Below are positions 1,654-18,618 of a DNA stretch of 64,000 nucleotides, in pieces; position 1 is the stretch's first letter, and each line of letters starts with the position of its first letter. The stretch comes from Sphingomonadales bacterium (lineage in GTDB: Bacteria > Pseudomonadota > Alphaproteobacteria > Sphingomonadales > Sphingomonadaceae), in the NCBI GenBank assembly GCA_027489695.1, contig JAIXZK010000144.1, positions 553 to 64,552 of the forward strand. The letters are read 5' to 3'. The notes below the pieces were generated by a model. The model was given only the letters and a program-made list of their open reading frames with translations, had not been told where the DNA came from and did not search any database. A program made the translations under genes and the position numbers.

Positions 1654-3465
1654 GTGGCTGACCAATTTGAACATCTGACCCGCGAGCAGCTTCTGAAGCT
1701 GGTGCGGCAACGTGAGCGCCAGAAAAAGCTCGGCCTCGTGTGGGAGCGCGATGCGATCGAGCGGGACAAGGCGCTGGACGATCGGTTCGTATCTCTCTCC
1801 CTTGTGCCCGATCTCTGCGATGGTGCCGCGCCATGGCCCAACATGGTCGTTGAAGGGGACAACTTCGACGCGTTGCGCTGGCTGCGAATGACTATGGCAG
1901 GCCAGTTTCGCTGCATTCTGATCGACCCGCCCTACAACACGGGCAACAAGGATTGGGTCTACAACGATCACTATGTCGACAAGGAAGATGCCTGGCGGCA
2001 TTCGACCTGGCTCGAGTTCCTTTATCAGCGGCTCATGATCGCACGGGACCTGCTTGCCCGTGACGGCGTGCTTATGGTGACAATCGACGACGACAACAGG
2101 GCTCGCTTGGACATGTTGTTGGAGGAGGCCCTGCCCGGCATGCGCGTTGGTAGCCTTGTTTGGCGGACGCGAGATACAACTGCCGCGAAGGGGAATAATC
2201 TGAGCGACGTGCATGAGCACATTCTGGTTTATGCGAACCCCGGCTTCCGGTTTGCTGGCTCCGAGAAGGGTCGGCATAAATACAAGAATCCGGACAACGA
2301 TCCGCGCGGGGATTGGAATACCGATCCTTTAACGTTGGCATTCAGCTCGACGGACAGAGCTAACCTGTTTTATCCGTTGCACAATCCTGCGACTGACATC
2401 TGGTATCCGTGCGATCACGATCGCGTTTGGGCATTTGCTTCCAAAAATCGTTTGAAGCCCGGCCAGAAAACTAGGTCCGCTCCGATGGAGGACCAGATCG
2501 CGGATGGCTTGATTGTCTGGCCGAAGGATGAGCGGATTGTAGTCTGGAATACATTGGCGGAGGTAGAAGCTGCTGTTGCCGCTGGCGATGTGCCGGTGAC
2601 TCCGAGGGACCAGAAGCCGCTGATCCGACCAAACGATGACCTGGCGCAGTGGGTGGGTCGGCAAGTGGGCTTCGGTCGCCCAGGCATCAAGAAATTCTGG
2701 ACGAACCTTCGAAGCCACGTTTCCCCGCTTAGTAGCTGGATCGCGCGGATCAACGAGGACGCCGATCCTGACCTGGAGCTCATCCGGACAGGTGCCGGTG
2801 GCGAGGGCACCAACGAGATTCAGCGGATCTTTGGATCGAAGGTGTTTCCCAACCCAAAGCCCCTTCAGCTGATCCGCGAGCTGGTTCGCCAAGCGACAGG
2901 CCCTGACGATCTGGTCCTCGATTTCTTCGCGGGCTCGGCCACTACAGCACACGCCGTGATGGAGCTGAATGCCGAAGACGGTGGCAGTCGGCGATTTGTT
3001 ATGGTCTCTTCGACAGAGGCGACTGATGATGATCCTCAGCGCAACGTGTGCCAGGACGTGACCGCAGCGCGCATCCGCCGCCTAAACGGCTTCACTGAAG
3101 GCTCCTATGCCGAGTTGAAAGCACCGTTCGTCTATCTCCGCACCCACGAGATTGCCTTTGAGGACATCGACTATGTGCTGCCGGTCGAAGAAGCGTGGCA
3201 CGCGCTTGAGGCTTCCCATGGACTGCCGCTGACACGATGGGAGCAGGGTGCGCGCTGGGCTGAGCACGCCGGTGACGGGGTTGTGCTGATCCTGGTCGAA
3301 CGGGTGAATGCTGAAGCGTTGGCTGCAATCGAACGCCATGCGGCAGCACGGGCCAATCTCTTCGCTTATGCCTTTGCGCCCGGCCAGCTCCGGACGGCAA
3401 TCGAGGGCCTCGATGTCGAGGTGCATGGGGTGCGCGAAGCCCTAGTACGCAGGTTCGTGCCATGA
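1654..3465 (+). CDS. mod: Type III-like DNA methyltransferase (Mod, beta-class N6A/N4C)
   Basis: DPPYNTG (motif IV) precedes FFAGSATTAHAV (motif I). It has a GTG start, and its stop overlaps the res start (ATGA). Confidence 0.88.
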   Translation: MADQFEHLTREQLLKLVRQRERQKKLGLVWERDAIERDKALDDRFVSLSLVPDLCDGAAPWPNMVVEGDNFDALRWLRMTMAGQFRCILIDPPYNTGNKDWVYNDHYVDKEDAWRHSTWLEFLYQRLMIARDLLARDGVLMVTIDDDNRARLDMLLEEALPGMRVGSLVWRTRDTTAAKGNNLSDVHEHILVYANPGFRFAGSEKGRHKYKNPDNDPRGDWNTDPLTLAFSSTDRANLFYPLHNPATDIWYPCDHDRVWAFASKNRLKPGQKTRSAPMEDQIADGLIVWPKDERIVVWNTLAEVEAAVAAGDVPVTPRDQKPLIRPNDDLAQWVGRQVGFGRPGIKKFWTNLRSHVSPLSSWIARINEDADPDLELIRTGAGGEGTNEIQRIFGSKVFPNPKPLQLIRELVRQATGPDDLVLDFFAGSATTAHAVMELNAEDGGSRRFVMVSSTEATDDDPQRNVCQDVTAARIRRLNGFTEGSYAELKAPFVYLRTHEIAFEDIDYVLPVEEAWHALEASHGLPLTRWEQGARWAEHAGDGVVLILVERVNAEALAAIERHAAARANLFAYAFAPGQLRTAIEGLDVEVHGVREALVRRFVP

Positions 3466-6002
3466 GCGACCGGCACAGTCTGGCGGCCTTTCAGGCCGAA
3501 GCTGTCGAAGCTATGGCAGCGACGGTCCGGCGGGTCGCGCGGGATGTTTCGTTCCGGCCGGCGGAAGCGCGAGCCATTTCGCTCCAATCCGGTACGCTGC
3601 TTCTTCAGGCGCCTACGGGTTCCGGCAAGACGCTGATGCTCGGCCGTGCGTTGGAGAGCGTCACCGGCGGGCTCCCGCAGCCGATGGTGTGGCTCTGGTT
3701 CGCCCCCTTCTCCGGCCTAGTCGCACAGACGCGGGACTCGCTTGCCGCACAGTGCCCCGGATTGCGACTGCGCGACCTGGCCGTGGATCGGGAGGCGGCA
3801 ACGACGCGCGACGGCGATGTCTTCTTGCAAACTTGGGCGTCCGTGGCGACCAAGGTGAAGGAAGCCCGGCGGATTCGGAGTGAGACCGAAAGCGCAAAGT
3901 CGCTCGACACGATGCTGGAGATCCTCCGCGCGGAAGGCTTCCGGGTTGGGGTGGTGATCGATGAGGCGCATATCGCCTTCCGGTCGACCACAGAGGCGAC
4001 GCAATTCTACCTCAACGTTCTGCAGCCCGACGTGACGCTGCTGGCAACGGCGACGCCGAATGATGATCGGTTGCGAGAGTTCGCCAAGTCGGCCGGCCTG
4101 TCTGTCGAGTGGCGTGTCGAGATCGCGAGGCGCGATGTTGTCGCTGCCGGGCTCAACAAGCGCGGGCTGATGCTCGGCATCGTGCGCTTCCCGCCTGAGG
4201 TTGAGAAGTTCCTCGATCTAGAAACGGCAGCTTTGACCGCCGGGTGGACCCAACACACCCGCATCGCCGACCGGCTGAAGGAGCGCGACATCGCTCTTAC
4301 GCCCCTGATGCTGGTGCAGGTTGAAGACCAGGAACAAGGCGGCGCCGATCCGGTCGATCGCGTGAAGGCAAAGCTGATTGAAATTGGCGTGCCGGAGAGC
4401 GCAATCGCAATTCACACCTCCGGTCAGCCGGATGCCAATTTCCATACCCTTGCTTATGACCCATCGCGGCAGGTGCTCGTTTTCAAAATGGCGGTGGCGA
4501 CGGGGTTCGATGCGCCACGCGCTTGGACGCTCGTCTCGGTCCGGCCCAATCGCGGCCGGGACTTCGGCATGCAGGTGGTCGGGCGCATCATGCGCGTGCA
4601 TGCCGCCGTGCGGCCTATCCATGGCCAGGATGCCTTGCTGGACCGGGGATATGTGTTCCTGTCCGATGCCGAAGTGCAGCAGGGCTTGGAAGCAGCTGCG
4701 CGGGAGGTCGATGCGGTGGAGCGGAGCATCCGCGGTGTCGCCGATGTGCTCGATGTGGTCGACTATGCCGTGTTGCCGCCGGCCCCCGCCGGTGTTGCCG
4801 AACCTGGTCCTCACATTCCGCAGGCCCCTAAAACGCCTGAGGATCGGCAGCTCCGTCTGAACCGCCTGATTGAGGCTGGCATCGTGCCCGAGGCTGTCCG
4901 CGCGATGGCCCCGGAGACACAGGATAGGACTATCGTTGCCGGCGAGTGGCGCCGCGTCGTGACAGAAACGCCGCTGTTCGGCGAGGCTTTGCCAAAGGAC
5001 GCCGTTGCCGGGGTGGCTCCGTCGCGCCCGGCTAGCGTTGGGCCAAGTTACAAGGCCTATCCCCTGCGGAAGGACCTAGGTGTTCCTGAGCGGTTGTTTG
5101 CTGAGCGCCCACCGGCGCCAGAGGCATACGACAGCGACGATTTCCTCCGTTCCGTGGCGCGAGGCTTCATCGATCGTGGCGAGCTGGTCCGCCTGGTCGC
5201 GCGGCGGCGGCAGTCGGCCGACCTATCCCTTCGCGATCTGTTCTTGGGCGACAGTGAAAAGCTGCAACTTCAGGTCCGGCTCTCGAACCGCCGGATTGCC
5301 GACGAAGCTCAGGGCGCCTTTGAGTTCAACGATTCCATCGATCCCCGTCTCTTGAAGCGCGCGCTGCTGCACGAGCTTCGGGCAAGCGCGTTGAAAGATG
5401 GCATCGAGTTCGAGGAAGCGGACCTGCGGCGGGCAGTCGATCTCGGTGCGCTCAGCAACCCCGATGCACTGGTGACCGCCGTGCGGGAGACAATGGCCCG
5501 CTTCCGCAAGGTCGTGCCTGCGGAGCCGATTCCTGATCCGCTAAGAGAAAGAGATGGGCTGCCGGAAGGAAGGCTTGCCGCGCACGGCGTTTTCACCAGC
5601 GACATGAACGGTCCGGAAGCCGCCTTCGCCGAGATGGTCGATCAGGACGATAGTGGTACGATCCTATGGTGGCTTCGGACACCGCACAACACGCCCTGGG
5701 CGGGGAAGCTCATCCTGCCCAACGGTCGCTCGTTCTTCCCGGACTTTGCTGTCGGGGTTCGCGGCCGATCAACGCCGCAGCAGGTGGCGTTGGTGGAGAT
5801 CAAGGATGACGGGAGCACTGGTCGATTGAACGCCGATGAGAACAATCTGAAGGCACAGGTGCAGCACATGGAGTATCGCGCGCCCTTCTGGGCCGCTAAG
5901 GGTCCGGGCGGCGAATTCGAGCGGCTTGAATGGAACCCGTCGCTTCGCCGCATTGTGGCGACCGATCGGTTTCAGGTGCAAACGATGGTTTTGGTCGGAT
6001 AA
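3462..6002 (+). CDS. res: Type III-like restriction subunit (Res): SF2 helicase plus C-terminal nuclease
   Basis: APTGSGKT (Walker A), VIDEAH (DEAH box) and ATATPN. The C-terminus has a PD-ExK-like FFPDFAV...VALVEIKDD. It is translationally coupled to mod. Confidence 0.85.
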   Translation: MSDRHSLAAFQAEAVEAMAATVRRVARDVSFRPAEARAISLQSGTLLLQAPTGSGKTLMLGRALESVTGGLPQPMVWLWFAPFSGLVAQTRDSLAAQCPGLRLRDLAVDREAATTRDGDVFLQTWASVATKVKEARRIRSETESAKSLDTMLEILRAEGFRVGVVIDEAHIAFRSTTEATQFYLNVLQPDVTLLATATPNDDRLREFAKSAGLSVEWRVEIARRDVVAAGLNKRGLMLGIVRFPPEVEKFLDLETAALTAGWTQHTRIADRLKERDIALTPLMLVQVEDQEQGGADPVDRVKAKLIEIGVPESAIAIHTSGQPDANFHTLAYDPSRQVLVFKMAVATGFDAPRAWTLVSVRPNRGRDFGMQVVGRIMRVHAAVRPIHGQDALLDRGYVFLSDAEVQQGLEAAAREVDAVERSIRGVADVLDVVDYAVLPPAPAGVAEPGPHIPQAPKTPEDRQLRLNRLIEAGIVPEAVRAMAPETQDRTIVAGEWRRVVTETPLFGEALPKDAVAGVAPSRPASVGPSYKAYPLRKDLGVPERLFAERPPAPEAYDSDDFLRSVARGFIDRGELVRLVARRRQSADLSLRDLFLGDSEKLQLQVRLSNRRIADEAQGAFEFNDSIDPRLLKRALLHELRASALKDGIEFEEADLRRAVDLGALSNPDALVTAVRETMARFRKVVPAEPIPDPLRERDGLPEGRLAAHGVFTSDMNGPEAAFAEMVDQDDSGTILWWLRTPHNTPWAGKLILPNGRSFFPDFAVGVRGRSTPQQVALVEIKDDGSTGRLNADENNLKAQVQHMEYRAPFWAAKGPGGEFERLEWNPSLRRIVATDRFQVQTMVLVG

Positions 6003-6054: not shown

Positions 6055-6699
6055 ATGCCTGCACCTATGCACCCAAAGATATATCACATTGTTCACGTCG
6101 ACCGCCTGCCTGCGATCCTCGAAGAAGGCGCCCTTCTGTGTGATGCAACGATGATTGCCAGACCGGGCGCAGGAACCACGATTGGAATGGGCTCGATCAA
6201 AACGCGGCGCTTAACCTTGCCTGTCACGTGCCACCCTGGACTCAACGTCGGTGACTGCGTTCCGTTCTACTTTTGTTCTCGCTCTGTCATGCTTTATCTG
6301 CTACGCATGGGCAATCACGCCGAGCTGACTTACCGGGGTGGACAAGGACCCATCGTGCATCTGGAAGCCGATCTCCGCGAAGTGGTCGAATGGGCTAACG
6401 CCGGTGGTCGCCGTTGGGCATTTTCGCTGTCTAACGCGGGCGCCTACTACACACAATTTCGCTCGGATTTGGCTCAGTTGAATGAGATAAACTGGGTAGC
6501 CGTCGCCGCCACCGATTTTCGCCCTTCTGATATTAAAGAGGGCAAGCAGGCCGAATTTCTGGTGCACGAACGCTTTCCTTGGGGCCTTGTGCGCCGTATC
6601 GGCGTTCAGACGCCTGCAATGGCGCAGCGGGTATCAGATGCAATCCGTGGCGCCGCGCATCGACCGCCAGTGGAGATTCTGCCGGCATGGTACTATTGA
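6055..6699 (+). CDS. darT: DarT-like ssDNA ADP-ribosyltransferase toxin (DUF4433)
   Basis: KIYHIVHVDRLPAILEEGALLCD at the N-terminus and GKQAEFLVHERFPW near the C-terminus match my memory of DarT. A macrodomain gene follows 15 nt later. Confidence 0.82.
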   Translation: MPAPMHPKIYHIVHVDRLPAILEEGALLCDATMIARPGAGTTIGMGSIKTRRLTLPVTCHPGLNVGDCVPFYFCSRSVMLYLLRMGNHAELTYRGGQGPIVHLEADLREVVEWANAGGRRWAFSLSNAGAYYTQFRSDLAQLNEINWVAVAATDFRPSDIKEGKQAEFLVHERFPWGLVRRIGVQTPAMAQRVSDAIRGAAHRPPVEILPAWYY

Positions 6700-6713: not shown

Positions 6714-7742
6714 ATGATTGAATCACGCGAAGGCGACATCCTCAACGCTGATGTTGAAGCTCTCGTCAACACCGTCAACTGCGTAGGCATTATGGGCCGG
6801 GGTGTAGCGTTGCAGTTCAAGAACGCATTCCCGGATAACTTCGCCGCGTACGCTGCCGCATGCGATCGCGGCGAGGTCGTGCCCGGCCGCATGTTCGTGT
6901 ACGCCACTCGCCAGCTGACCAATCCGCGGTTCATCGTCAACTTTCCGACTAAGCGTCACTGGAAGGGCAAGAGCCGTATCGAGGATATCGAGGCCGGCTT
7001 AGTTGCGTTGAAGGCGGAGATTCAAAGGCGGGGAATTCAGTCGATCGCCATTCCTCCCCTTGGCTCTGGCCTCGGCGGCCTGAATTGGAGCGATGTGCGC
7101 CCTCGGATCGTGGCGGCTCTGCGCGACATCGAGGGGTTGACCGTCGAGCTGTTCGAGCCGCGCGGCGCTCCCGATGCGAGCGTTATGGCCCGCACGCGCG
7201 AAGTTCCTAAGATGACGGTCGGCCGCGCGGCGCTGGTCACTTTGATGCAGCGCTACCTGGGCGGCCTCATGGACCCGTTCGTGACGCTGCTCGAAGTCCA
7301 CAAGCTCATGTACTTCCTTCAGGAAGCTGGCGAGCCGCTGCGTCTCAAGTATCAGAAGGCTACTTACGGTCCTTACGCCGAAAACCTCCGCCATGTTCTC
7401 CATGCGGTCGAGGGGCACCTGATTACCGGCTATGCCGATGGGGGTGATGCGCCAGGTAAGGAGCTGGAGCTTGTGCCAGGAGCTGTGGATGACGCCGAGA
7501 CTTTCCTGGCCTCGTCCACCGACGCGAGAGCCCGCTTGGACCGCGTGGCGAAGCTGGTAGAAGGTTTCGAGACGCCCTTTGGGCTTGAACTGCTTGCGAC
7601 TGTTCATTGGGTTGCCCAACGCGAAGGCGCCGGCGATGGCTTGGTTGCCCGAGTACATGCTTGGGGGGAACGTAAGCGCCAGTTCTCTTCGGGACAAATC
7701 ATGCTCGCGCACAACACCCTGCTGCAGCAGGGCTGGCTTTAG
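6714..7742 (+). CDS. darG: DarG-like macrodomain antitoxin (ADP-ribosyl glycohydrolase)
   Basis: Start set at ATG 6714 (GAGGGAGGGAG upstream) instead of ORF-track 6579. Macrodomain signature GDILNADVEALVNTVNCVGIMGRGVALQFK. The C-terminal half (KLMYFLQ..YGPY) resembles DUF4065/Panacea-type domains. Confidence 0.82.
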   Translation: MIESREGDILNADVEALVNTVNCVGIMGRGVALQFKNAFPDNFAAYAAACDRGEVVPGRMFVYATRQLTNPRFIVNFPTKRHWKGKSRIEDIEAGLVALKAEIQRRGIQSIAIPPLGSGLGGLNWSDVRPRIVAALRDIEGLTVELFEPRGAPDASVMARTREVPKMTVGRAALVTLMQRYLGGLMDPFVTLLEVHKLMYFLQEAGEPLRLKYQKATYGPYAENLRHVLHAVEGHLITGYADGGDAPGKELELVPGAVDDAETFLASSTDARARLDRVAKLVEGFETPFGLELLATVHWVAQREGAGDGLVARVHAWGERKRQFSSGQIMLAHNTLLQQGWL

Positions 7743-7799: not shown

Positions 7800-8150
7800 C
7801 TACTGATCCTTGGACCAGTAGATTCTGCCCCGTCGAAGCCAGAAATGAGATTTGCAGTCCTTTTTCCTCCAAATTGACGGGAATAGGGTTGCAGTTCCGT
7901 CCTCATGCATTGTGACCTGCCAGCAGGGTCGCTCGTCTGGCAGCAAATTCATGTGCAATACCTTTCCGCATTTACACGGGCAGAGCATTGCAGCCTGTTC
8001 TTGAAATCCATCCTCCTCGACAATGTAGAGGGTCCGCCGACGCATTTTAGTCGGAAGGCGGTCGTGCACAATTTCGGTGCGGTGTGGTGGATCAAACCAG
8101 CCAACAACAGCCTTGGCCCACGACCTAATGATCTTTCCAATGGCTGTCAT
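7800..8150 (-). CDS. DUF6527-like small Cys-cluster (Zn-ribbon-like) protein, last gene of the Ubl operon
   Basis: 116 aa with CPCKCG...CW...DCKSHFW. Its start overlaps the E1 stop by 4 nt. Confidence 0.72.
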   Translation of the reverse strand: MTAIGKIIRSWAKAVVGWFDPPHRTEIVHDRLPTKMRRRTLYIVEEDGFQEQAAMLCPCKCGKVLHMNLLPDERPCWQVTMHEDGTATLFPSIWRKKDCKSHFWLRRGRIYWSKDQ

Positions 8151-9544
8151 GTGGAACGCTTATCGGCAAGTTCCATCATTCGAAGCAACGGACGGACATC
8201 CCCCATACCCACTGATCGACTGAAGATAGAGCAGATGCCTTCCTCGGGGTCGCAGATGATCTCCATGCTGGCGAGACTGAAGGTCACCGAAGCATAGCTA
8301 CCGTTTGTCTCTTCACGATATGGGTGAAGCCGAGCAAGGAACTCGTTTACAGCGAGCGAGGACCCCAACATGTTGACGCTTATCACAGCAGGTCGTCGGC
8401 CTTGGAAGCCCCGGATGTATCCGTCTTTCAGTTGCCGGTCGTGAGCCATTGGATCATTGCGGGCCAAACCAGCGGCAGCAACCTGAGTGATGCTGAACAG
8501 GTCGCGACTGACAAGGCTTGAGCGACCTGGGCGGATGTAATTGACCGTCCCGCAGACTTCCTTGATGTCACCATCGGAAGCGACAAGCCTGATGCCAATG
8601 TCGAAATATGGTATGTTGTAGAAAGTCGAGATGAGGTTGAGCAGAAAGCGGCCATCGACCGTATCCATACACCCGAACACCACATCGCATTGAGCCACTG
8701 CCCGGACCACATCCGGATGCCAAAGGTTCTGCTTGATCGCGATAAACTTAGTGCCAAGGCCGATGCGTTCCGCAGCATCAGCTGCTACTTCCACTTTGGA
8801 ACGCTTTTCGACAGCATCAGCCATGGTCGAATTAACGATGCGATTGACGTTGCGATCTTCCATCACGTCGTCGTCAACGCATACGATCTCACCGACGCCA
8901 AGGCGGATGAGTTGCTCGATTGTTGGCGCGCCAGTACCGGATGCGCCGATCACTGCAACTGACAAGCGCTGCAGCCGCTCGATCGTGCCTTCGTCGAATG
9001 CTTGGGCATGGGAAGCGACAAAGCTAGGCAATTCGAGTGAACCAGCGTTGGCGTACCAGAAGTGGAGATCGTCTCCTGCCACGCTGATGCAATCGATGGA
9101 GGTTAGGTCGCCGCCTCGCATCACCCTCCCAAACATTTGGCCGCTGGGAAGCATGACCACACTGCCATGAGATAGCTCACCCTCGACCCAGCCCTGGATC
9201 ATTGGCAGCAGCTGCGCGTCACTGCGATCATCGGTAGCTGAAAAAGCAGCGTATCCGTTAGGATGACTATGTACCTTGATGACCGCCAACCTCTCAGCTG
9301 CCGCCCGCTCAAGAATTGTGTCGATATAGTCGGGCGACCATGTGACGGACGTTGGTGTGCGCCTTACGCAATGTTCATAAGGGATTTCGTGGATCTCACG
9401 CACGGTTAACCTCTGCCGGCGATCCCCGTCTCGCATACCGCAAAGCAGGAACGCCACTGCTTCCAAGTCGTCTCCGGGAAAGAGATGACTTCGTAGATGG
9501 GCGTGCTGATCGCCCGTGAAAGCAAGGGTTACCGGGCAGGGCAT
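8147..9544 (-). CDS. JAB (JAMM) metallopeptidase fused to a ThiF/E1-like adenylyltransferase
   Basis: JAMM motif is intact: E in DDLEAVAF, then HSHPNGYAAFSATD (HxHx7Sx2D). E1 Rossmann region: VAVIGASGTGAPTIEQLIRLGVGEIVCVDDDVMEDRNVNR. Confidence 0.85.
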   Translation of the reverse strand: MPCPVTLAFTGDQHAHLRSHLFPGDDLEAVAFLLCGMRDGDRRQRLTVREIHEIPYEHCVRRTPTSVTWSPDYIDTILERAAAERLAVIKVHSHPNGYAAFSATDDRSDAQLLPMIQGWVEGELSHGSVVMLPSGQMFGRVMRGGDLTSIDCISVAGDDLHFWYANAGSLELPSFVASHAQAFDEGTIERLQRLSVAVIGASGTGAPTIEQLIRLGVGEIVCVDDDVMEDRNVNRIVNSTMADAVEKRSKVEVAADAAERIGLGTKFIAIKQNLWHPDVVRAVAQCDVVFGCMDTVDGRFLLNLISTFYNIPYFDIGIRLVASDGDIKEVCGTVNYIRPGRSSLVSRDLFSITQVAAAGLARNDPMAHDRQLKDGYIRGFQGRRPAVISVNMLGSSLAVNEFLARLHPYREETNGSYASVTFSLASMEIICDPEEGICSIFSRSVGMGDVRPLLRMMELADKRST

Positions 9545-9945
9545 TTTTCGAACTCTCGGGCGAACCAGTCTTCGATAAGGAAAATGTGCGTACCGATGCC
9601 GTCGTGGCCCGGCCTCCAGGGGTTGTGGCTAGTGCGGTGCCGTGACCAGCGCTGATACACCTTGCCGTCGATGACCTGCGGTGCGTCAGTCGCCCCTATC
9701 CGCAGCCCGTCCCGCCTAGAAAGCGCCGGCAGCACGTAAACCATGTCGAGCGCCGTGATCGGGTAGCCCGTTTCAAGCCGGATGGCGATGGTCACAGACG
9801 ACTCATTGTAGCCGTCATGTTGTGAGGGGAAGCCATGCACTAGCACCCACTGCGACCCGTCGCTCACAGTCTCCCAAGGAAGACCATAATCGTCAAGAAA
9901 CTGCTGATCATCCGCCGACAGGTCGAAATCACGACGCATCGTCAT
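9529..9945 (-). CDS. E2/UBC-like protein lacking a catalytic-position cysteine (Prok-E2_E-like)
   Basis: 138 aa, sitting between the Ubl and E1 genes and overlapping the E1 start by 16 nt. UBC-like landmarks are ETGYP and SHNPW. The only Cys lies in the C-terminal KCPAR tail. Confidence 0.62.
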   Translation of the reverse strand: MTMRRDFDLSADDQQFLDDYGLPWETVSDGSQWVLVHGFPSQHDGYNESSVTIAIRLETGYPITALDMVYVLPALSRRDGLRIGATDAPQVIDGKVYQRWSRHRTSHNPWRPGHDGIGTHIFLIEDWFAREFEKCPAR

Positions 9946-9948
9946 CGC

Positions 9949-10290
9949 TCAGCCCTCCGTCTGGTCGCGCGGCAGCGCCTTGAATTTTTCGACGCCCGGC
10001 TTACGCAGATCGACCTTCTCGTCGAGAGCGACCTTTTCAGGCTTCGCGCCGGCAGCCTTGATCCGCAGCGTATAATCCTCGGGGGGAACGAGGCCGGCCA
10101 AGACAAGGACCTCGCGTCCCGTAATCGTGGGCTTCTGGATGACATAGGGTTCACCATTCACCCGAATGCGGTAACCCCTCGCCAACGGGGGCCGCTCACC
10201 GCGCTTGGCGAATTCTTCAAGGTCGATGATCTCGTCGAGCACGGCTTCCTCGCCGGCGTCGACCGCTTCCTTATAGGCTTCTTCACTCAC
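9949..10290 (-). CDS. Ubiquitin-like (multiubiquitin-domain type) protein ending in a free Gly
   Basis: Start set at GTG 10290 (AAGGAG 7 nt upstream), not ORF-track 10524. It has an acidic helix, then a beta-grasp-like RGYRIRVNGEPYVIQKPTITGREVLVLAG. It ends ...RDQTEG-stop. Confidence 0.62.
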   Translation of the reverse strand: MSEEAYKEAVDAGEEAVLDEIIDLEEFAKRGERPPLARGYRIRVNGEPYVIQKPTITGREVLVLAGLVPPEDYTLRIKAAGAKPEKVALDEKVDLRKPGVEKFKALPRDQTEG

Positions 10291-10351
10291 TTCTCGGCTC
10301 CTTGCCCAGGCCCGGACCGCCCGGGTGATGAGAAGCCATATCGCATAGCGT

Positions 10352-10396
10352 GCTTGGTATATCAAGCAGATTCTTAGCACGCTTGACATACCAAGC
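10352..10396. promoter_or_regulatory. Twin 16-bp quasi-palindromic operators within divergent promoters
   Basis: GCTTGGTATATCAAGC (10352-10367) and GCTTGACATACCAAGC (10381-10396) are reverse complements of each other apart from one mismatch. One carries TTGACA on the + strand (XRE side) and the other TTGATA on the - strand (Ubl side). Confidence 0.5.
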
Positions 10397-10445
10397 GGTG
10401 TGGCGCTAAATGTCTCGAGATTCCAGTGGATTGAAGGAGTGTTCA

Positions 10446-10847
10446 ATGGCAACCGCAGACGACAAAGATGTCGGCGAGCCAACCACCGAGCCCAACTTGA
10501 CCTTGGGCCAGTACTTGGCATCAATACGCAAAGACCGACGGCTCAGTTTGCGGGCAGTCGAGGAAAGATCGGGGAAGCAGGTCTCCAACGCCTATCTTAG
10601 TCAAATCGAGAACAACCAGATTCAGCAACCTTCGCCGAATATCCTCAATGCATTAGCGGAAATCTATGAAATCAGTTTAGAAGGCCTGATGGAAAAGGCT
10701 GGCTTCATTCAAAAGTCTGGCCTTCGTGAGCAGAATGAGCGACATGGCCGAATTGCAACTTTTGCAGAGCACAACTTGACGCCAGAGGAAGAAGTTGAGC
10801 TGATGCAGTATCTAGAATTTATGCGTCATCGGAAGCGACCGCGTTGA
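10446..10847 (+). CDS. XRE-family HTH transcriptional regulator (CapH/ImmR-like)
   Basis: ATG 10446 follows AAGGAG. HTH region: TLGQYLASIRKDRRLSLRAVEERSGKQVSNAYLSQIENN. Its stop overlaps the next gene. Confidence 0.85.
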   Translation: MATADDKDVGEPTTEPNLTLGQYLASIRKDRRLSLRAVEERSGKQVSNAYLSQIENNQIQQPSPNILNALAEIYEISLEGLMEKAGFIQKSGLREQNERHGRIATFAEHNLTPEEEVELMQYLEFMRHRKRPR

Positions 10848-11764
10848 AACCTGACGATAGCAGCCTGTCGCTGCATGACATGGCAATCATTGAGAAGCGC
10901 GCAAGCCGGCTGCTAAGCGAAGCTGCTGCTTGGGATCGATTCCCTGTTCCTATCGACGACTTGCTGTCAGCAGCAAAGGTAAAAGTCGCGCCCCACAGCA
11001 TCTTCGATCCAGCGAGCATCCTGGCATATCTGAAAGGCAAAGCGGAAGGGGCGGCGGCAACAATCAAGTCGGCCATTTCCAAGGTGTGGGGCCTGTACGA
11101 CGCAGAGGAAAGCTTGATCCATATTGATCAAAGCGTGAATATTTCTCGGCAGACATTCCTCAAATTACATGAGGCAGGTCACCATGATATTCCAACTCAC
11201 AAGAAGTTGTTTCGCTTTTTCCAAGACTGCGAGCAAACGCTGGCCCCCGAGATAGCTGACCAGTTTGAGCGCGAAGCCAACAATTTTGCCCGGTTCGCCT
11301 TGTTCAAAGGCGACGTCTATCGGCAGCAAGCATCTGATTGCGCTTTTGAAATTAAAACTCCGATGAAGCTTGCCAAGAAGTTTGGTTCATCGGTTTATGC
11401 GTCGGTACGGGAGTTTGCTCGGACAAACCCGCGGGCGTGCGTTGTCTATGTGCTTGAGCCAGCTGAGTTCGTAGACGGCCATGGCTTTCGTGCGGCTGTC
11501 AGGCGCATTGAGGTGTCTCCCAAATACCGTAGCGAGTTTGGCGTGCCGAATGACGTGGCAATTACATCCGATCACCTGCTGGGGTCTATTGTGCCAATCG
11601 GCCGGAAAATGACCCGGCCCAGAACACTTACCGTGACCGATCTGAACGGCGAAACTCATGAATGCGTCGCGGAGGCTTTCGACACCACGTTCAACATTCT
11701 GATCCTTCTGTATCCTGTGAAGGCATTGGGCCGATCGATTCTTGTGTTGAGGCCCGGCAGCTGA
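10844..11764 (+). CDS. ImmA/IrrE-family Zn metallopeptidase with an extra C-terminal domain (CapP-like)
   Basis: HEXXH motif in FLKLHEAGHHDIP. TTG start overlapping the XRE stop. About 150 aa of uncharacterised C-terminal region. Confidence 0.82.
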   Translation: MKPDDSSLSLHDMAIIEKRASRLLSEAAAWDRFPVPIDDLLSAAKVKVAPHSIFDPASILAYLKGKAEGAAATIKSAISKVWGLYDAEESLIHIDQSVNISRQTFLKLHEAGHHDIPTHKKLFRFFQDCEQTLAPEIADQFEREANNFARFALFKGDVYRQQASDCAFEIKTPMKLAKKFGSSVYASVREFARTNPRACVVYVLEPAEFVDGHGFRAAVRRIEVSPKYRSEFGVPNDVAITSDHLLGSIVPIGRKMTRPRTLTVTDLNGETHECVAEAFDTTFNILILLYPVKALGRSILVLRPGS

Positions 11765-11866
11765 TCTGCTCGTGCTCTTCAGCGAACAGATTATTGGCCA
11801 CTGGTGTGGATAGGCTACAGCCCATCTTTTGGTATGACTTTAATCTCAGAGGCATCAGGAGACAAC

Positions 11867-12331
11867 GTGACGGACACACAGATCCAGCAACTGAAGCGTG
11901 CTCTGTTAGATGAATATGGCAGTTTTGCCGATCGACGCATTAAAAACATCGATCGTGGAGATCGTTTTATAGTCGATGGCAGGACGGACAGCGATATAGC
12001 GTCTGATGGCCAGGTCTATGGCTGGTTCTGCTCGATGTTCCTTGAAGTACGTTCGGTCGATCACGTCACACTACACCTAACGAACGTACCAACGAGTGAT
12101 GCTGTTGATGGTTGGCTGGCTGCGCATTCAGAAAGTGTCGGCCGAGGTCATCGCGTTGCAATTGGACGCGGTAGTGAAGAGATCCTCGCTGAGTTCGCCG
12201 CCCATGTGAACGCGATAACGGCCCCTGGGCGCCGCTACAGTGTCCCATCATACAAGTATGCAGTGCCAAGGGTCGTCGACGCCTTAGGCCGACTGGCGCG
12301 GGCACTAAGGCGGGGATGGCAGATTGAATGA
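11867..12331 (+). CDS. Hypothetical protein (154 aa)
   Basis: GTG 11867 lies 5 nt after AGGAG; the ORF track extends it to 11804. I recognise no motif. Confidence 0.45.
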   Translation: MTDTQIQQLKRALLDEYGSFADRRIKNIDRGDRFIVDGRTDSDIASDGQVYGWFCSMFLEVRSVDHVTLHLTNVPTSDAVDGWLAAHSESVGRGHRVAIGRGSEEILAEFAAHVNAITAPGRRYSVPSYKYAVPRVVDALGRLARALRRGWQIE

Positions 12332-12609
12332 CCCTGCGCTTCTGCGCCAACCGGCATCGGTCATGGATGAGATCAAGAAGCTGCACCGACCGCGTACGTA
12401 AGCGGATCGGTCGACGAGCATCTTGCACCCGTGATCAGACCGGGCGGAGACCACCGAGCCGCGGATCTCAAAAGATCCGTACGCTCTGAATCTCAATGGC
12501 GGGCCCTGATCGACACACTCTTTCTTCGACCGAGGTGCTGCGTCAAGGCTCCGCTTCTCAGTGCATTTTACCCCTTTTGTTCTCATGCCAAATGACTCAT
12601 AGAATCACC

Positions 12610-13080
12610 ATGCCGATCCGCCCAAGCCAGCGTTGGTTCTACCCGATCGACTGGCGCGAGCTGTCTCAGGTCATCCGCTTCGATCGCGCCGGCGGCCGCT
12701 GCGAGCACTGCCGACGACCGCACCGACAGCTGGTGATCGTCGGCCCCGGTGGCCTGTGGTGGGACGAGACTCGGCAAGGCTGGCGCGACCATCGGGGCCG
12801 GCGGTCGCGGGCGCTGCCCTCCCCTGCCCGGCTCGCCGTCCTGCAGCCGGCCTTGGCCGGCTTCGCCGCCCTGCCCCTGCCCTCGACCTATGTCGTCCTC
12901 GCTACCGCCCATCTCGACCAGGACCCCGGGAACAACGATGGCCACAACCTCGCCGCGCTGTGCCAGCGCTGCCACCTCGCCCATGACCGGGCGGCGCATC
13001 GCCGCCAGCGCTGGAAGACGCTGTTCTACCGCCGCGCCCTCGGAGACCTGTTCGCCGGCCGCTACCCCGAAGCGCGCTGA
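12610..13080 (+). CDS. HNH endonuclease-like protein
   Basis: CEHCRRPH ... HLDQDPGNNDGHNLAALCQRCHLAHD. ATG at 12610 is chosen within ORF 12496..13080. Confidence 0.72.
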   Translation: MPIRPSQRWFYPIDWRELSQVIRFDRAGGRCEHCRRPHRQLVIVGPGGLWWDETRQGWRDHRGRRSRALPSPARLAVLQPALAGFAALPLPSTYVVLATAHLDQDPGNNDGHNLAALCQRCHLAHDRAAHRRQRWKTLFYRRALGDLFAGRYPEAR

Positions 13081-13868: not shown

Positions 13869-14834
13869 ATGACCAAAGCTTCCTCCCCTGCCACCCGAGC
13901 AACCGCGTCGCGCGGCGACCTTTACGACGACATCACCAACCGCATCATCGCCGAGCTCGAGGCCGGCGCGCTGCCCTGGGTCCGGCCGTGGGCGTCGAGC
14001 GAGGTGGCGGCGCCGCTGGCGCTGCCGCGCAACGCCGCCACCGACCGCTGCTACAGCGGCATAAACATCCTGATCCTGTGGGGCGCGGTCGCGAACCGCG
14101 GTTTTGCCGGACAGTTCTGGCTGACGTTCCGGCAGGCCCTGTCGCTCGGCGGCAATGTCCGCAAGGGCGAGACCGGCACCACCGTCGTCTATGCCGATCG
14201 CTTCATCCCCGACGATGAGCGCAAGCGCAGCAGCCAGACCGGCGACGATCCCCGTGCCATCCCATTCCTGAAACGCTTCACGGTGTTCAACACCGACCAG
14301 TGCGAAGGCCTGCCGGGCAATCTCGCCACGACACCCCCTGCCCTGCCCGAAGGTCTGGTGCTGCCGCAGGTCGAGGCGCTGATCCGCGCATCGGGCGCCG
14401 ATGTCCGGCTCGGTGGCAACGAGGCCTATTACGCACCGGCCGCTGACTTCATCCAGGTGCCGCACCCGGATGCATTCCATGCGCCGATCGATTGGCACCG
14501 GACCGCGCTGCACGAGCTCGGCCATTGGTCGGGCGCTGCCTCGCGGCTCGGCCGAGACCTGTCGGGCGGCCATGGAACACAGGCCTATGCCCGCGAGGAG
14601 CTTGTTGCCGAGATGTGCGCCGCGTTCTGCTGTGCGGCATTGGGCATCGTGCCGACGGTGCGCCATGCCGATTACATCGGCAGCTGGCTCAAGGTGCTGC
14701 GCGAGGACAACCGCGCCATCGTCCGTGCCGCCTCGGCGGCGTCGAAGGCGGCGGATTTCCTGCTCGGGTTTCGGGCCGAACCGGAGGACGCACCCCCTCC
14801 CGATCCGTCGCAATACGAGGCAGCCCTGCTCTGA
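13869..14834 (+). CDS. ardC: ArdC-like antirestriction protein (ssDNA-binding N-domain plus zincin metallopeptidase)
   Basis: GALPWVRPW...YSGINILILW N-domain and HELGHWSG (HExxH) C-domain. Confidence 0.82.
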   Translation: MTKASSPATRATASRGDLYDDITNRIIAELEAGALPWVRPWASSEVAAPLALPRNAATDRCYSGINILILWGAVANRGFAGQFWLTFRQALSLGGNVRKGETGTTVVYADRFIPDDERKRSSQTGDDPRAIPFLKRFTVFNTDQCEGLPGNLATTPPALPEGLVLPQVEALIRASGADVRLGGNEAYYAPAADFIQVPHPDAFHAPIDWHRTALHELGHWSGAASRLGRDLSGGHGTQAYAREELVAEMCAAFCCAALGIVPTVRHADYIGSWLKVLREDNRAIVRAASAASKAADFLLGFRAEPEDAPPPDPSQYEAALL

Positions 14835-15005
14835 CCATGCGCGGCACCGCCGGCTTCGGCGGTGCCCCTTTGCCGGACCTTCTGCCTCCCCTGCCCCGCT
14901 CCGGCCCGTGGCGACGGAGGATGAGAGGAGGAGGAGGGCGGGAGGATCTGCGACGGGTTGGAGGTCGAGAGAGAGGCTCCCGGCCGCCCGTCACGGAGAA
15001 GTCCC

Positions 15006-17186
15006 ATGACGAAGAAGATCACCCTCAGCGCCTCGCGCGACATCCCGCTCGACAAGCTGGTGCTGGCGGCATCGAACGTGCGTCGGATCGAGTGCGGCGT
15101 GTCGATCGAGGAACTGGCCGAGGACATTGCCCGGCGCACGCTGTTGCAAAGCATCACCGTGCGCGCCGTCCGCGACGAAAATGGCCAGGAGACCGGCATG
15201 TTCGAGATCCCGGCCGGCGGCCGCCGGTTCCGGGCGCTCGAGCTGCTGGTCAAGCAGAAGCGCCTGGCGAAGAATGCGCCGGTGCCGTGCGTCATCCGCG
15301 AGGATGGCGTCGCCGAGGAGGACAGCCTCGCCGAGAATGTCCAGCGGGCGCCGCTGCACCCGCTCGACCAGTTCCGCGCGTTCCTTGCTCTTCGCGAGAA
15401 GGGCCAGTCCGAGGAGGAGATCGCTGCGGCGTTCTTCGTCGCGCCGGCCGTCGTCAAGCAGCGCCTCAAGCTGGCGAGCGTCAGCCCGAAGCTGCTTGAC
15501 GTCTATGCCGAGGATGGCCTGACTCTCGACCAGCTCATGGCGTTCACCGTCAACGGCGACCATGAGCGTCAGGCACAGGTGTTCGAGACCGTGAGCCGGT
15601 CGTACAGCCGGGAGCCGCACGCCATCCGGCGGATGCTGACCGAAGGCTCGATCCGGGCCACCGACAAAAGGGCACAGTTCATCGGTATCGACGCCTATGT
15701 CGAAGCCGGCGGTGTCGTGCTGCGCGACCTGTTCCAGGGAGACGAGGGTGGCTGGCTCGCCGATGTCGGGCTGGTCGAGCGGCTCGTTGCCGAAAAGCTC
15801 GACGCTGCCGCCGCCACGATCCGGGCCGAGGGCTGGAAGTGGCTCGAGGTCGCGGTCGAGTTTCCGTACGGCCACACCTGGAACCTGCGCGACATCGCCG
15901 GCGAGCCCGTCCCGCCGACCGAAGCCGAGGAAGCCGAGGCCGCCGCGCTTCGCGCCGAGTATGAGCGGCTCGAAGCGGAATATGCCGAGGTCGACGAACT
16001 GCCCGACGAGATCGATGCCCGGCTCGGCGAGATCGAGGCTGCGCTGGAGGCGTTCGACGATCGGCCGTTGGCGTTCGCCCCGGACGACGTCGCGATTGCC
16101 GGGGTGTTCATCAGCATCGGGCGGGGTGGCGAGTTGCTCGTCCAGCGCGGCTATGTGCGCCCCGAGGACGAGCGGCCCGTGGCGGAGCCGGCACAGGGTG
16201 GCGAGGACGGTGAGGACAACGGCAACGCCGGCAATGCTGGCACCGACACCGCCAACGGCGTCCAGACGCCGCGTAGCGGCCCTGTCGACCCTTCTGCCGG
16301 CCCCAGCACGGGCCACACGCCGGAGACCGAGCCCGACGAGGACGAGGGCCTCAAGCCCCTGCCCGACCGCCTGGTCAGCGAACTTACCGCGCATCGCACG
16401 CTGGCCTTGCGCGAAGCCGTTGGCAGCGACTTCGACGTGGCGTTCCTCACGGCCCTCCACGCGCTGTGCCTGAAGCTGTTCTTCACCTTTGCGCCGGACA
16501 GCTGCCTCGACCTCGACATCAAGAGCGTCGGGTTCAGCGTTCAGGCGCCGGGGCTCACCGACAGCAAGGTGGCACAGGCGGTAAGCGAACGGCACCAGCT
16601 GTGGAAGGCATCGCTGCCCAAGGACCCGGGCGCGCTGTGGGACCACCTTGCCGGGTTCGAGGCACATCTGGCGCAGATGCTGTTCGCGCATTGCGTGTCG
16701 CTGTCGGTCAATGCGGTGATCGAGCCGTACAACCGGCGACCCCGGGCGCTGGCGCACGCCGACCTCGTCGCGCAGATGGTCGATCTCGACATGGCAGCGG
16801 CCGGTTGGACGGCCACGGTCGACGGGTTCCTCGGCCGGGTGACCAAGGCGCGCATCGTCGGCGCAGTGCGCGAAGCTCGCGGCGAACGGGCGGCCGATGG
16901 CATCACCGGACTCAAGAAGGGCGAGATGGCCGAAAAGGCCGCCACCCTGCTCGCCGGTTCCAACTGGCTGCCCGAACCGCTGCGCACGCCGGGACGCGAA
17001 CTGCCGCCGGTGGTTGAAGCCGCCGACTGCGCCAGCGACGAGCCGGTCGAGGGCGCCGAGACGGCCGATGTCGGTGCGCAAGCGCCCGAGGGAGAAGGCA
17101 TCGATAACCCCGATGGCGACGCTGGCGACGACGAAGCAGCGACCTGCGACGAGCCCGACGCCAGCGTGGCGATCGCCGCCGAATAG
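15006..17186 (+). CDS. ParB/Srx N-terminal (nuclease-like) domain protein of conjugative elements
   Basis: LAASNVRRIE...FEIPAGGRRFRALELL (ParB GxxR box). Long acidic C-terminal region. ATG 15006 follows GGAGA. Confidence 0.8.
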   Translation: MTKKITLSASRDIPLDKLVLAASNVRRIECGVSIEELAEDIARRTLLQSITVRAVRDENGQETGMFEIPAGGRRFRALELLVKQKRLAKNAPVPCVIREDGVAEEDSLAENVQRAPLHPLDQFRAFLALREKGQSEEEIAAAFFVAPAVVKQRLKLASVSPKLLDVYAEDGLTLDQLMAFTVNGDHERQAQVFETVSRSYSREPHAIRRMLTEGSIRATDKRAQFIGIDAYVEAGGVVLRDLFQGDEGGWLADVGLVERLVAEKLDAAAATIRAEGWKWLEVAVEFPYGHTWNLRDIAGEPVPPTEAEEAEAAALRAEYERLEAEYAEVDELPDEIDARLGEIEAALEAFDDRPLAFAPDDVAIAGVFISIGRGGELLVQRGYVRPEDERPVAEPAQGGEDGEDNGNAGNAGTDTANGVQTPRSGPVDPSAGPSTGHTPETEPDEDEGLKPLPDRLVSELTAHRTLALREAVGSDFDVAFLTALHALCLKLFFTFAPDSCLDLDIKSVGFSVQAPGLTDSKVAQAVSERHQLWKASLPKDPGALWDHLAGFEAHLAQMLFAHCVSLSVNAVIEPYNRRPRALAHADLVAQMVDLDMAAAGWTATVDGFLGRVTKARIVGAVREARGERAADGITGLKKGEMAEKAATLLAGSNWLPEPLRTPGRELPPVVEAADCASDEPVEGAETADVGAQAPEGEGIDNPDGDAGDDEAATCDEPDASVAIAAE

Positions 17187-17206
17187 CATCTGCACGCATC
17201 GAACCT

Positions 17207-17236
17207 GGGCCCGCCGGCGACGGCGGGCCCTTTTTT
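17207..17236 (+). terminator. Rho-independent terminator
   Basis: GGGCCCGCCG-gcga-CGGCGGGCCC followed by TTTTTT. Confidence 0.85.
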
Positions 17237-17544
17237 CGTGTCCGGCGGTCAGAGCCCCCTGCCCTGCCCGGCCAGAGCCACGCGCGGAGGGCCTTCCGAG
17301 AGGGGGCGACGGGGAGCGCAGCCAAGGCTGGCTGGCAACGGTCGCCGCCCGGCTATTTTCCGCCGGCAGGCTGAGCCTGCCTTTGCATCGCGAAGCAAAA
17401 TAGCCGGCCGCTCCCGTCCTTCGCTCACGCTGCGGCCGCGCGGGGCTTCGCCCTCGGCGGTGCCTGCCACCCCTGCCCGCGCTCTTTGCGCGCCCGGGAA
17501 GGCCACGTGCCCCGCGTGGTCAACCGCCCAAGGGAGTGAAGGAC

Positions 17545-18474
17545 ATGACCACCGACCGCTTCGAAGACAGCCCCGCCGAATCGCCGACCGCATCCCTCCT
17601 CACCGAGCTGCAGCTGTTCGGCCACCGGCCATTCAGCGACGAGCCCGATCCAAGGCCCCTGCCCGACGAACCCCGTGTCCACGGCGCCATGGTCGACATC
17701 TTCGACGCGCTGGTGGCCACGCTGGTCGACACCCGCCTCGAGCCCGATCTCGACGACCTGCTCTGGGCCATGGTCAATCTGTTCCACCGCACCGTCGACC
17801 GGGTCGAGCGCGAGCTCGATGACAACGAACAGGCACAGCGGCACAGCCAGCGCGACCAGGACGGCTCCGAGGTCCTGTCCACCGAGCTCGAACGCCTCCT
17901 CGCCCAGGGCCTGACCCTGATCGAGCGCCGCAACGCCTATGAGTTCATGCGCGACCACGCCGCCGAACTGTTCGAGGTCCACACCGGCTCGCACTGGCAC
18001 CCGCGTTCGGGCTCGCTCGTAAACCGCAAGGCGCTGACCTCCGCCGTGATCGACAGCCGCGACTTCGTCGCCGCCCGGCGCCGCGCCGAAACCCAGGTGA
18101 TGATGCCGGCCGGCACACGCATCGGATTTACCGGTGGCTATGACAGCAACGATCATGCGGCGATCTGGGCGGTGCTCGACAAGGTCCATGCCAAGCATCC
18201 CGACATGGTCCTCCTCCACGGCGGATCACCCAAAGGCGCCGAGCGCATCGCTGCCTGCTGGGCCGACAAGCGCCGGGTCGCGCAGGTCGTGTTCAAGCCC
18301 GATTTCAACCGCCACAAGCAGGCGGCGCCGTTCAAGCGCAACGACCAGTTGCTCGAGGCACTGCCGATCGGGCTGATCGTGTTCCCTGGCACCGGCATCG
18401 TCGATAATCTCGCCGACAAGGCGAGGAAGCACGGGATTCCGCTGTTCGACTTCCGGAAAGGAGGTGGCGGCTGA
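17545..18474 (+). CDS. DUF2493 (SLOG-like) domain protein
   Basis: The C-terminal MVLLHGGSPKGAERIAACWA...FKRNDQLL resembles DUF2493 proteins of conjugative elements. ATG 17545 follows GGGAG. Confidence 0.7.
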   Translation: MTTDRFEDSPAESPTASLLTELQLFGHRPFSDEPDPRPLPDEPRVHGAMVDIFDALVATLVDTRLEPDLDDLLWAMVNLFHRTVDRVERELDDNEQAQRHSQRDQDGSEVLSTELERLLAQGLTLIERRNAYEFMRDHAAELFEVHTGSHWHPRSGSLVNRKALTSAVIDSRDFVAARRRAETQVMMPAGTRIGFTGGYDSNDHAAIWAVLDKVHAKHPDMVLLHGGSPKGAERIAACWADKRRVAQVVFKPDFNRHKQAAPFKRNDQLLEALPIGLIVFPGTGIVDNLADKARKHGIPLFDFRKGGGG

Positions 18475-18618
18475 GCACTGCTGTCGTTTACACGCTTTAG
18501 CCTTGGTCCAAACCTGGGCTAGCTTGCCATATGAACCCTTTTCGTGCTTTGCTGCGCACAAGTCGTTCAGTTGGGGGCTGCGGTGGCAAAAAGCGCGATA
18601 TCGAGACCTGAGGTCGAG

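Follow-up and report, generated by a model that had tools for sequence, protein, structure and literature searches.

The operons once designated 6E/DUF6527 were renamed Bub (bacterial ubiquitination-like) in two preprints from the Corbett laboratory, including that of Ye, Gong, Chambers and Corbett (bioRxiv 10.1101/2024.11.21.623953; hereafter cited as Ye et al 2026), and the Bub enzymes were characterised structurally and biochemically in 2024-2026. Type I Bub operons (formerly 6E.1/DUF6527) encode a ubiquitin-like protein (Ubl), an E2, a JAB-E1 fusion and a DUF6527 protein (Ye et al 2026), as in the BubAB-BubCD-BubE operon of Citrobacter sp. RHBSTW-00271 (PDB 9EA4, 9EA5, 9EA8, 9EAE and 9EAV; Ye et al 2026). 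According to the same work, the homodimeric E1 BubCD adenylates the C-terminal Gly of BubA, a crossover-loop Tyr and then the E2 Ser carry the Ubl as oxyesters and not as thioesters, the Ubl ends on lysines, and BubE, a zinc-dependent Ser-His peptidase without known fold relatives, removes the conjugates. All Type I operons were said to encode a BubA-BubB fusion that is cleaved by the JAB domain (Ye et al 2026). In the present study, a stretch of 64,000 nucleotides from a Sphingomonadales bacterium (contig JAIXZK010000144.1 of assembly GCA_027489695.1; hereafter the window) was analyzed, and its positions 7800-10290 very probably hold an intact Type I Bub operon with a CapH/CapP regulator, situated in a cluster of defence genes, on a plasmid-like element that is alphaproteobacterial and of the repABC type. 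The locus is a further member of an already named system and not a new system, and its value as a discovery is small, the family being already named and known from crystal structures, with its chemistry worked out.

The four genes of the operon were found on the minus strand in the order bubA (9949-10290, 113 aa), bubB (9529-9945, 138 aa), bubCD (8147-9544, 465 aa) and bubE (7800-8150, 116 aa), with a gap of 3 nt after bubA (9946-9948) followed by overlaps of 16 nt (9529-9544) and 4 nt (8147-8150). Pfam assigned Multi_ubiq to BubA (7e-17), Prok-E2_E to BubB (2e-39), ThiF and Prok-JAB to BubCD (2e-25 and 9e-10) and DUF6527 to BubE (PF20137, 8e-23). Since a family was assigned to each of the four open reading frames (ORFs), with scores far beyond the chance level, they were considered real genes and not chance ORFs. 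A preliminary description of this DNA had proposed a Ubl/E2/JAB-E1/DUF6527 conjugation operon with these overlaps and this gap, and had suggested profile searches for Multiubiquitin, Prok-E2, Prok-JAB, ThiF and DUF6527; each of these families was matched, and the motifs quoted there (HSHPNGYAAFSATD, IGASGTG...DDDVMEDRNVNR and CPCKCG..CW..DCKSHFW) were all present. Two of its statements had to be corrected. The system had been called poorly described and set apart from Bub as having a different architecture, Bub being characterised there by Ser proteases, but exactly this domain set defines Type I Bub; and the role of the DUF6527 protein had been left open, but this protein is BubE, which has been assayed as a Ser-His peptidase removing BubA conjugates.

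For comparison, one genome per species was scanned, relatives were found in 428 genomes, and the best 80 loci, with BubCD identities of 45-74%, were fetched. The published catalytic residues were conserved in the window and across these 80 related loci. BubCD of the window was aligned with Citrobacter BubCD (PDB 9ea4_A) over residues 7-462 (2e-87, 37% identity) and showed the build of the Type I protein: a JAB domain with a JAMM site (E28, H92, H94 and D105) fused to an E1 domain with the adenylation Arg (R235) and a crossover loop (350-383) that contained Tyr376 and no Cys. In phage genomes, the matches of BubCD were ThiF-like genes only.

BubB was identified as an E2-like protein of the UBC fold without an active-site Cys. 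It matched Citrobacter BubB (PDB 9eae_C, 3e-27), with which the sequence YQRWSRH was identical, and its predicted catalytic residues were Ser101, His103 and Asp67, the Ser, His and Asp that replace the Cys in the Type I Bub E2. The Ser and the His were invariant (80/80 loci). At residue 67 (window 9745-9747), Asp was present in the window and in 14/14 loci with a BubAB fusion, and 16 of the 66 operons with separate bubA and bubB genes (described below) had Asn, one Gln and one His; this Asp beside the catalytic Ser of the E2 is said not to vary among Type I BubAB proteins (Ye et al 2026).

The residues of BubE carried the same numbers as in the published Citrobacter BubE and comprised a C4 zinc site (C57, C59, C61 and C99) and a Ser92/His102 dyad, preceded by an N-terminal amphipathic helix. 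A DUF6527 protein with these two sites, encoded within the operon, is a feature of Type I Bub. In 47 BubE homologues, C57, C59, S92, C99 and H102 were invariant and C61 nearly so, and in 79 of the 80 related loci the gene directly after bubCD was bubE. The AlphaFold2 model of the window BubE consisted of a helix (2-18) and eight strands (pLDDT 78). When this moderately confident model was searched with Foldseek, no fold match was obtained in the PDB at E<=1e-3, and a sequence search of the PDB with BubE gave no match either; the model and the null fold search agree with the published description. A weak match (3e-5) was detected to the phage family phrog_15183, to which no function is assigned, and tblastn of BubE against 50,697 phage records yielded no match. 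Apparently, bubE is easily missed or truncated by gene callers: the exact sequence of the window BubE was not obtained from a protein collection that returned BubB and BubCD, and on a Methylocystis rosea plasmid (locus L081, 5608-5787) the DUF6527 protein in RefSeq is a fragment of only 59 aa.

The window therefore shared with the Citrobacter operon the four domains, the gene order and the location on a mobile element, as well as homology over the full length of BubCD, over BubB and, in BubA, over the last beta-grasp domain. Also common to both were the E/HxH/D residues of the JAMM site, the Arg of the adenylation domain, the crossover-loop Tyr, the Ser/His/Asp of the E2 and the C4 and Ser/His sites of BubE. 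The differences lay elsewhere. Citrobacter encodes a 362-aa BubAB fusion that is cut by BubC after G229, whereas the window has separate genes and a BubA that ends at Gly; Citrobacter BubA contains three domains of the beta-grasp type and assembles into filaments, whereas the window BubA has one domain and an acidic tail; and the CapH/CapP regulator of the window is a further difference. Type II Bub (6E.2), represented by BubA-BubBD-BubE of E. coli ZDHYS365, resembles the window in its separate Multi_ubiq Ubl gene, its DUF6527 BubE and the oxyester chemistry of E1 Tyr and E2 Ser, predicted for the window from homology. However, Type II operons have an E2-E1 fusion (BubBD), usually no JAB, and Lys and His beside the E2 Ser, in contrast to the JAB-E1 fusion, the free E2 and the His and Asp of the window, which are those of Type I.

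Separate bubA and bubB genes and the JAMM domain

The start codon of bubA was a GTG at 10290, with the Shine-Dalgarno sequence AAGGAG (10298-10303) seven nucleotides upstream. In its product, a single Multi_ubiq beta-grasp domain followed an N-terminal acidic tail of about 39 aa; this domain matched beta-grasp domain 3 in Citrobacter BubA (residues 155-229, PDB 9ea8_B, 2.6e-9) in an alignment that reached the terminal Gly. The protein ended in ...DQTEG, followed by TGA, and this end, with the reactive Gly of the Type I Bub Ubl, was conserved among the related loci. At the junction with bubB (...ACG GAG GGC TGA GCG ATG) the TGA came directly after Gly113, one codon separated it from the bubB ATG, and the two frames were in phase. 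The Shine-Dalgarno sequence of bubB, GGAGGG (9953-9958, minus strand), was formed within bubA by its final Thr-Glu-Gly codons. A BubAB fusion was thus not present here, the stop following the Gly and bubB having its own Shine-Dalgarno sequence and ATG, and BubA would be made as a separate protein, already mature and ending in Gly.

The organization of the junction was scored in the fetched loci, 79 of which were scorable, one being lost to a contig end; about 2,800 BubCD clusters exist, and the following counts cover the 80 fetched loci. The genes bubA and bubB were split in 65 of the 79 (66 split operons with the window added). In 55 of them the stop came directly after the Gly, as in the window, and in 10 a short tail followed it; a true BubAB fusion was found in the other 14. 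Among the loci with the stop at the Gly, TAA, TGA and TAG were all used, and the spacers fell in all three frames. A GGAG/GAGG motif in the terminal codons was present in 56 of the 66 split operons versus 6 of the 14 fused loci. The best 120 of 801 clusters of E2 homologues were all stand-alone proteins of 131-139 aa. In a neighbour-joining tree of BubCD, the alphaproteobacterial clade of the window was uniformly split, and the more distant half of the tree contained fused and split loci intermingled, which means that the change took place repeatedly. In RefSeq, the multiubiquitin and E2 genes of the Methylocystis rosea plasmid are separate, with AbiV, AbiJ, AbiEii/Ei and a methyltransferase on their flanks, and an Enterobacter roggenkampii IncHI2A plasmid encodes a fused protein of 362 aa.

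Hence, the split four-gene form, and not the BubAB fusion, dominates the 80 fetched loci and is a common yet under-described subtype. Because 65 of the 79 scorable relatives were split and the RefSeq annotation of relatives agreed, the fusion was considered the mark of a subtype and not a defining feature of Type I Bub.

The in-frame TGA of the window, one codon from the bubB ATG, together with a literature that calls the fusion universal, could also be taken to mean that a bubAB fusion gene was recently broken by a nonsense mutation, or only seems broken through an error of sequencing, with decay of the operon or translation by read-through of the TGA. The comparative data led us to reject this reading. 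A lesion, or a fusion dependent on read-through, is very improbable when the split recurs with three stop codons and three spacer frames in most of the scorable loci, over the whole range of BubCD identities, and when the closest E2 homologues are stand-alone; in the window, moreover, the Shine-Dalgarno sequence and the ATG of bubB are in place and the catalytic residues are all intact, and relatives have separate genes in RefSeq.

The split operons bear on the function of the JAMM domain of BubCD, since a BubA that is already mature and ends in Gly would not need this domain for cleavage of a pro-Ubl. The JAMM E, HxH and D residues were nevertheless intact in 65 of the 66 split loci, as in 14/14 fused ones, and from this retention we infer that another function is under selection. 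In the split subtype, the JAMM domain would most likely be a second deconjugating or proofreading peptidase. The wider proposal is that Type I Bub has a large subtype, mainly alphaproteobacterial, in which the Ubl is translated in its mature form, its Thr-Glu-Gly codons serve as the ribosome-binding site of bubB, and the strictly conserved JAMM site has an essential job beyond pro-Ubl cleavage, either as a second deconjugase or as a hydrolase proofreading mis-charged or auto-conjugated BubA; we consider the chances of this proposal to be even. The suggested second JAMM function, drawn from conservation, is the only part that goes beyond the literature. If it is true, the split subtype would be the natural place to tell apart what each of the two Bub peptidases does. 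The value of the locus is that of a reagent and of a correction: the split form dominates the fetched loci, and pro-protein processing cannot explain its JAMM domain.

An arrangement resembling a poly-Ubl precursor was observed in one of the fused loci (L078, about 9350-9990), from a Planctomycetota metagenome-assembled genome, where two tandem, near-identical beta-grasp repeats, each ending in ...LPLDQTEGE, precede the E2.

The CapH/CapP pair and the predicted pathway

Two genes on the plus strand were located upstream of bubA and divergent from it. The first encodes a CapH-like helix-turn-helix (HTH) repressor of 145 aa (10410-10847; Pfam HTH_3 1e-9, PADLOC capH 2e-4) and the second a CapP-like zinc metallopeptidase of 306 aa with an HEAGH motif (10844-11764; PADLOC capP 3e-13), whose start overlaps the stop of capH by 4 nt. 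The XRE/ImmA-type switch that had been proposed for the operon in the preliminary description was recognised in these two proteins, which have the predicted features of a CapH/CapP pair, namely an HTH repressor and an HExxH peptidase encoded divergently from the operon. Among the 80 related loci, capH was found divergently upstream in about 40 and both genes, with fixed spacing, in about 39, and the pair was present upstream in most of the closest 37. It has been reported that 31% of Bub operons have CapH and CapP (Ye et al 2026). Directly beyond capP, an ORF of 234 aa was found in several close relatives (L003 6948-7649, L004 3695-4396, L009 6945-7646 and L012 6942-7643, all on the minus strand) that is absent from the window.

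The divergent control region between bubA and capH (10291-10409) contained two inverted repeats of 16 bp, at 10352-10367 (GCTTGGTATATCAAGC) and 10381-10396 (GCTTGACATACCAAGC); in the whole window two such sites were found, where chance would give 0.09. At least 12 related loci with CapH/CapP had the pattern GCTTG-N6-CAAGC in the corresponding place, and paired palindromes were located about 800-860 nt upstream of bubCD in split as well as fused operons with these regulators (for example L001, L006, L010, L055, L068 and L074). The paired palindromes are likely CapH operators. In outline, immune operons under CapH/CapP control, among them CBASS and others (Lau et al 2022), have the same divergent pair of an HTH protein and a zinc metallopeptidase, with palindromes in the shared intergenic region; here the cargo is Bub and not CBASS, and its control by the pair is predicted.

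The grounds of this analysis are homology, residue conservation, gene organization and genomic context, from which we infer the catalytic steps in this organism, their regulation and the biological role. Because every residue involved was conserved in the window and in the 80 loci, the published oxyester conjugation chemistry was taken to apply to the window operon. Under this scheme, CapH would repress the divergent promoter through the two palindromes, and DNA damage would activate the peptidase CapP, leading to the removal of CapH. The BubCD dimer would then adenylate Gly113 of BubA at an ATP site that includes R235, Tyr376 of the Cys-free crossover loop would take the Ubl as a tyrosine oxyester, and Ser101 of BubB, aided by His103 and Asp67, would then receive the Ubl as a serine oxyester. 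Transfer from BubB to target lysines would follow, and the conjugates would be removed by BubE by means of its C4 zinc site and the Ser92-His102 dyad.

Alternative readings of the locus and its role

The same general parts (Ubl, E1, E2 and JAB) are found in Bil operons and in the Cap2/Cap3 module of Type II CBASS, and weak PADLOC matches of BubCD to generic E1-E2 proteins of the Cap2 type (best 3e-9) might suggest a Bil variant or a Cap2/Cap3 accessory module working through cysteine thioesters. Type I and II Bil (BilABCD) do resemble the window in having the four components in one operon, in their location in defence islands and in lysine conjugation, expected for the window from homology. 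Nevertheless, Bil works through Cys thioesters with a large IAD-AAD-CYS E1, encodes the JAB in a gene of its own and lacks a DUF6527 protein, and the window differs in each respect: its single adenylation domain is fused to the JAB, the crossover loop has no Cys, and Ser occupies the catalytic position of the E2. As for CBASS, the PADLOC matches covered only the ThiF adenylation core, DUF6527 is absent from these systems as it is from Bil, and Pfam and PADLOC scans revealed no CD-NTase or CBASS effector among the operon neighbours. Both candidates were ruled out by the active-site residues and the architecture, which leaves this reading scarcely any probability; the preliminary description had likewise held the operon to be neither Bil nor CBASS. 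A ThiS/MoaD-ThiF/MoeB-type module for sulfur carriage or cofactor biosynthesis, in which the JAB would act as maturase (CysO/Mec+ or SAMP-like), is just as hard to uphold. Pfam and NCBIfam do match the E1 domain to models of the ThiF/MoeB type, and relatives bear the RefSeq label 'ThiF family adenylyltransferase', but the NCBIfam scores of BubCD were far under the cut-offs (for example, 73 bits versus 275). Furthermore, the Ubl, a Multi_ubiq domain, is a homologue of BubA, a dedicated E2 with conserved Ser and His is present, the crossover loop is Cys-free, no rhodanese domain is present, and the homologous Citrobacter proteins conjugate to lysines. The preliminary description had indicated that sulfur-carrier biosynthesis genes beside the operon in other genomes would speak against conjugation; no thi or moa genes were seen among the most recurrent flanking families of the 21 closest loci, which were those of defence and mobility. 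A sulfur-carrier function was therefore rejected on the neighbours, the NCBIfam cut-offs, the E2 and the loop.

The role of a Type I Bub operon in the cell leaves more room for debate. It is probably anti-phage or related to DNA-damage stress. Another reading keeps the same Bub chemistry and assigns it to something other than phage defence: a response to DNA damage or to stress in general, or a plasmid function such as competition with other mobile elements or control of the host after transfer. This is a serious possibility, although not the one we favour. According to the Bub literature, regulators of the CapH/CapP type respond to DNA damage rather than to phage as such, and the element carrying the operon is plasmid-like (repABC, ArdC, ParB), with relatives common on conjugative plasmids. 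On the other hand, the operon is embedded among DarTG and a Type III restriction-modification (R-M) pair, relatives stand beside AbiEii, AbiV, AbiJ and R-M genes, the same regulators also control CBASS and other immune operons, and the related Bil is antiviral. For Bil, moreover, protection against phage has been demonstrated and a phage tail protein shown to be the target, which is not so for Bub.

Several points weigh against reading the locus as a working Type I Bub defence operon. No phage protection was found for any Bub operon in E. coli (Ye et al 2026), a position that was the same in 2026, and the label of 'defence system' comes from genomic context. The in vitro activity of BubE was very weak and required incubations of 48 h (Ye et al 2026). 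The JAB domain has been suggested to act 'primarily or solely' in BubAB cleavage (Ye et al 2026), a view that conflicts with the second JAMM role proposed above. Finally, membership in Bub was argued from Pfam, PDB homology and the literature; scans with PADLOC (2023) and NCBIfam returned no match for BubA, BubB or BubE, a result that is uninformative, these libraries being without Bub-specific models.

Genomic surroundings

Downstream of bubE, the toxin-antitoxin pair DarTG was convergent with the operon, from which it was separated by a spacer of 57 bp. Both genes were complete and on the plus strand: darT at 6055-6699 (2e-63) and darG, encoding the macrodomain antitoxin, at about 6714-7742 (3e-133). 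They were adjoined by an apparent Type III R-M pair, also on the plus strand, consisting of an N6/N4 DNA methylase (1654-3465) and a ResIII/DEAD helicase-type protein (3462-6002), whose genes overlap by 4 nt. Searches of Pfam, PADLOC, NCBIfam and PHROGs left an ORF of 175 aa just downstream of capP (11804-12331, plus strand) without a match, and tblastn detected no counterpart of it in the 80 related loci; it may be either a cargo gene or not a gene. It was followed by a protein of 194 aa (12496-13080, plus strand) matching the phage HNH endonuclease family phrog_1571 (2e-24) and no Pfam model at the threshold used. A plasmid backbone extended over 13869-21999 and comprised an ArdC anti-restriction protein (ArdcN and zincin domains), a ParB-N protein of 742 aa and a RepA(ParA)/RepB/RepC module. 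No tRNA gene was found in the window, and a megablast search of PLSDB detected distant plasmid relatives of the window and no close one.

Since DarTG, the R-M pair, the HNH protein, ArdC, the ParB-like protein and RepABC surround the operon, the region was interpreted as a cluster of defence genes carried by an alphaproteobacterial plasmid-like element with repABC. The defence-island context proposed in the preliminary description was borne out by DarT, DarG, the methylase and the ResIII helicase. Adjoining DarTG and a Type III R-M pair, under CapH/CapP control and on a plasmid-like element, the window copy is a reasonable candidate for finding the cellular role and the targets of Bub.

DarTG adjoined Bub in the window only and in none of the 80 related loci, so that the flanks are variable, in the manner of defence islands. 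When 114 proteins flanking the 21 closest loci were scanned, the most recurrent families were AbiEii, Type I/IIG/IV restriction, integrases, resolvases, coupling proteins of the type IV secretion system and relaxases. Additionally, relatives of BubCD were detected on 91 PLSDB plasmids, 53 of which are conjugative.

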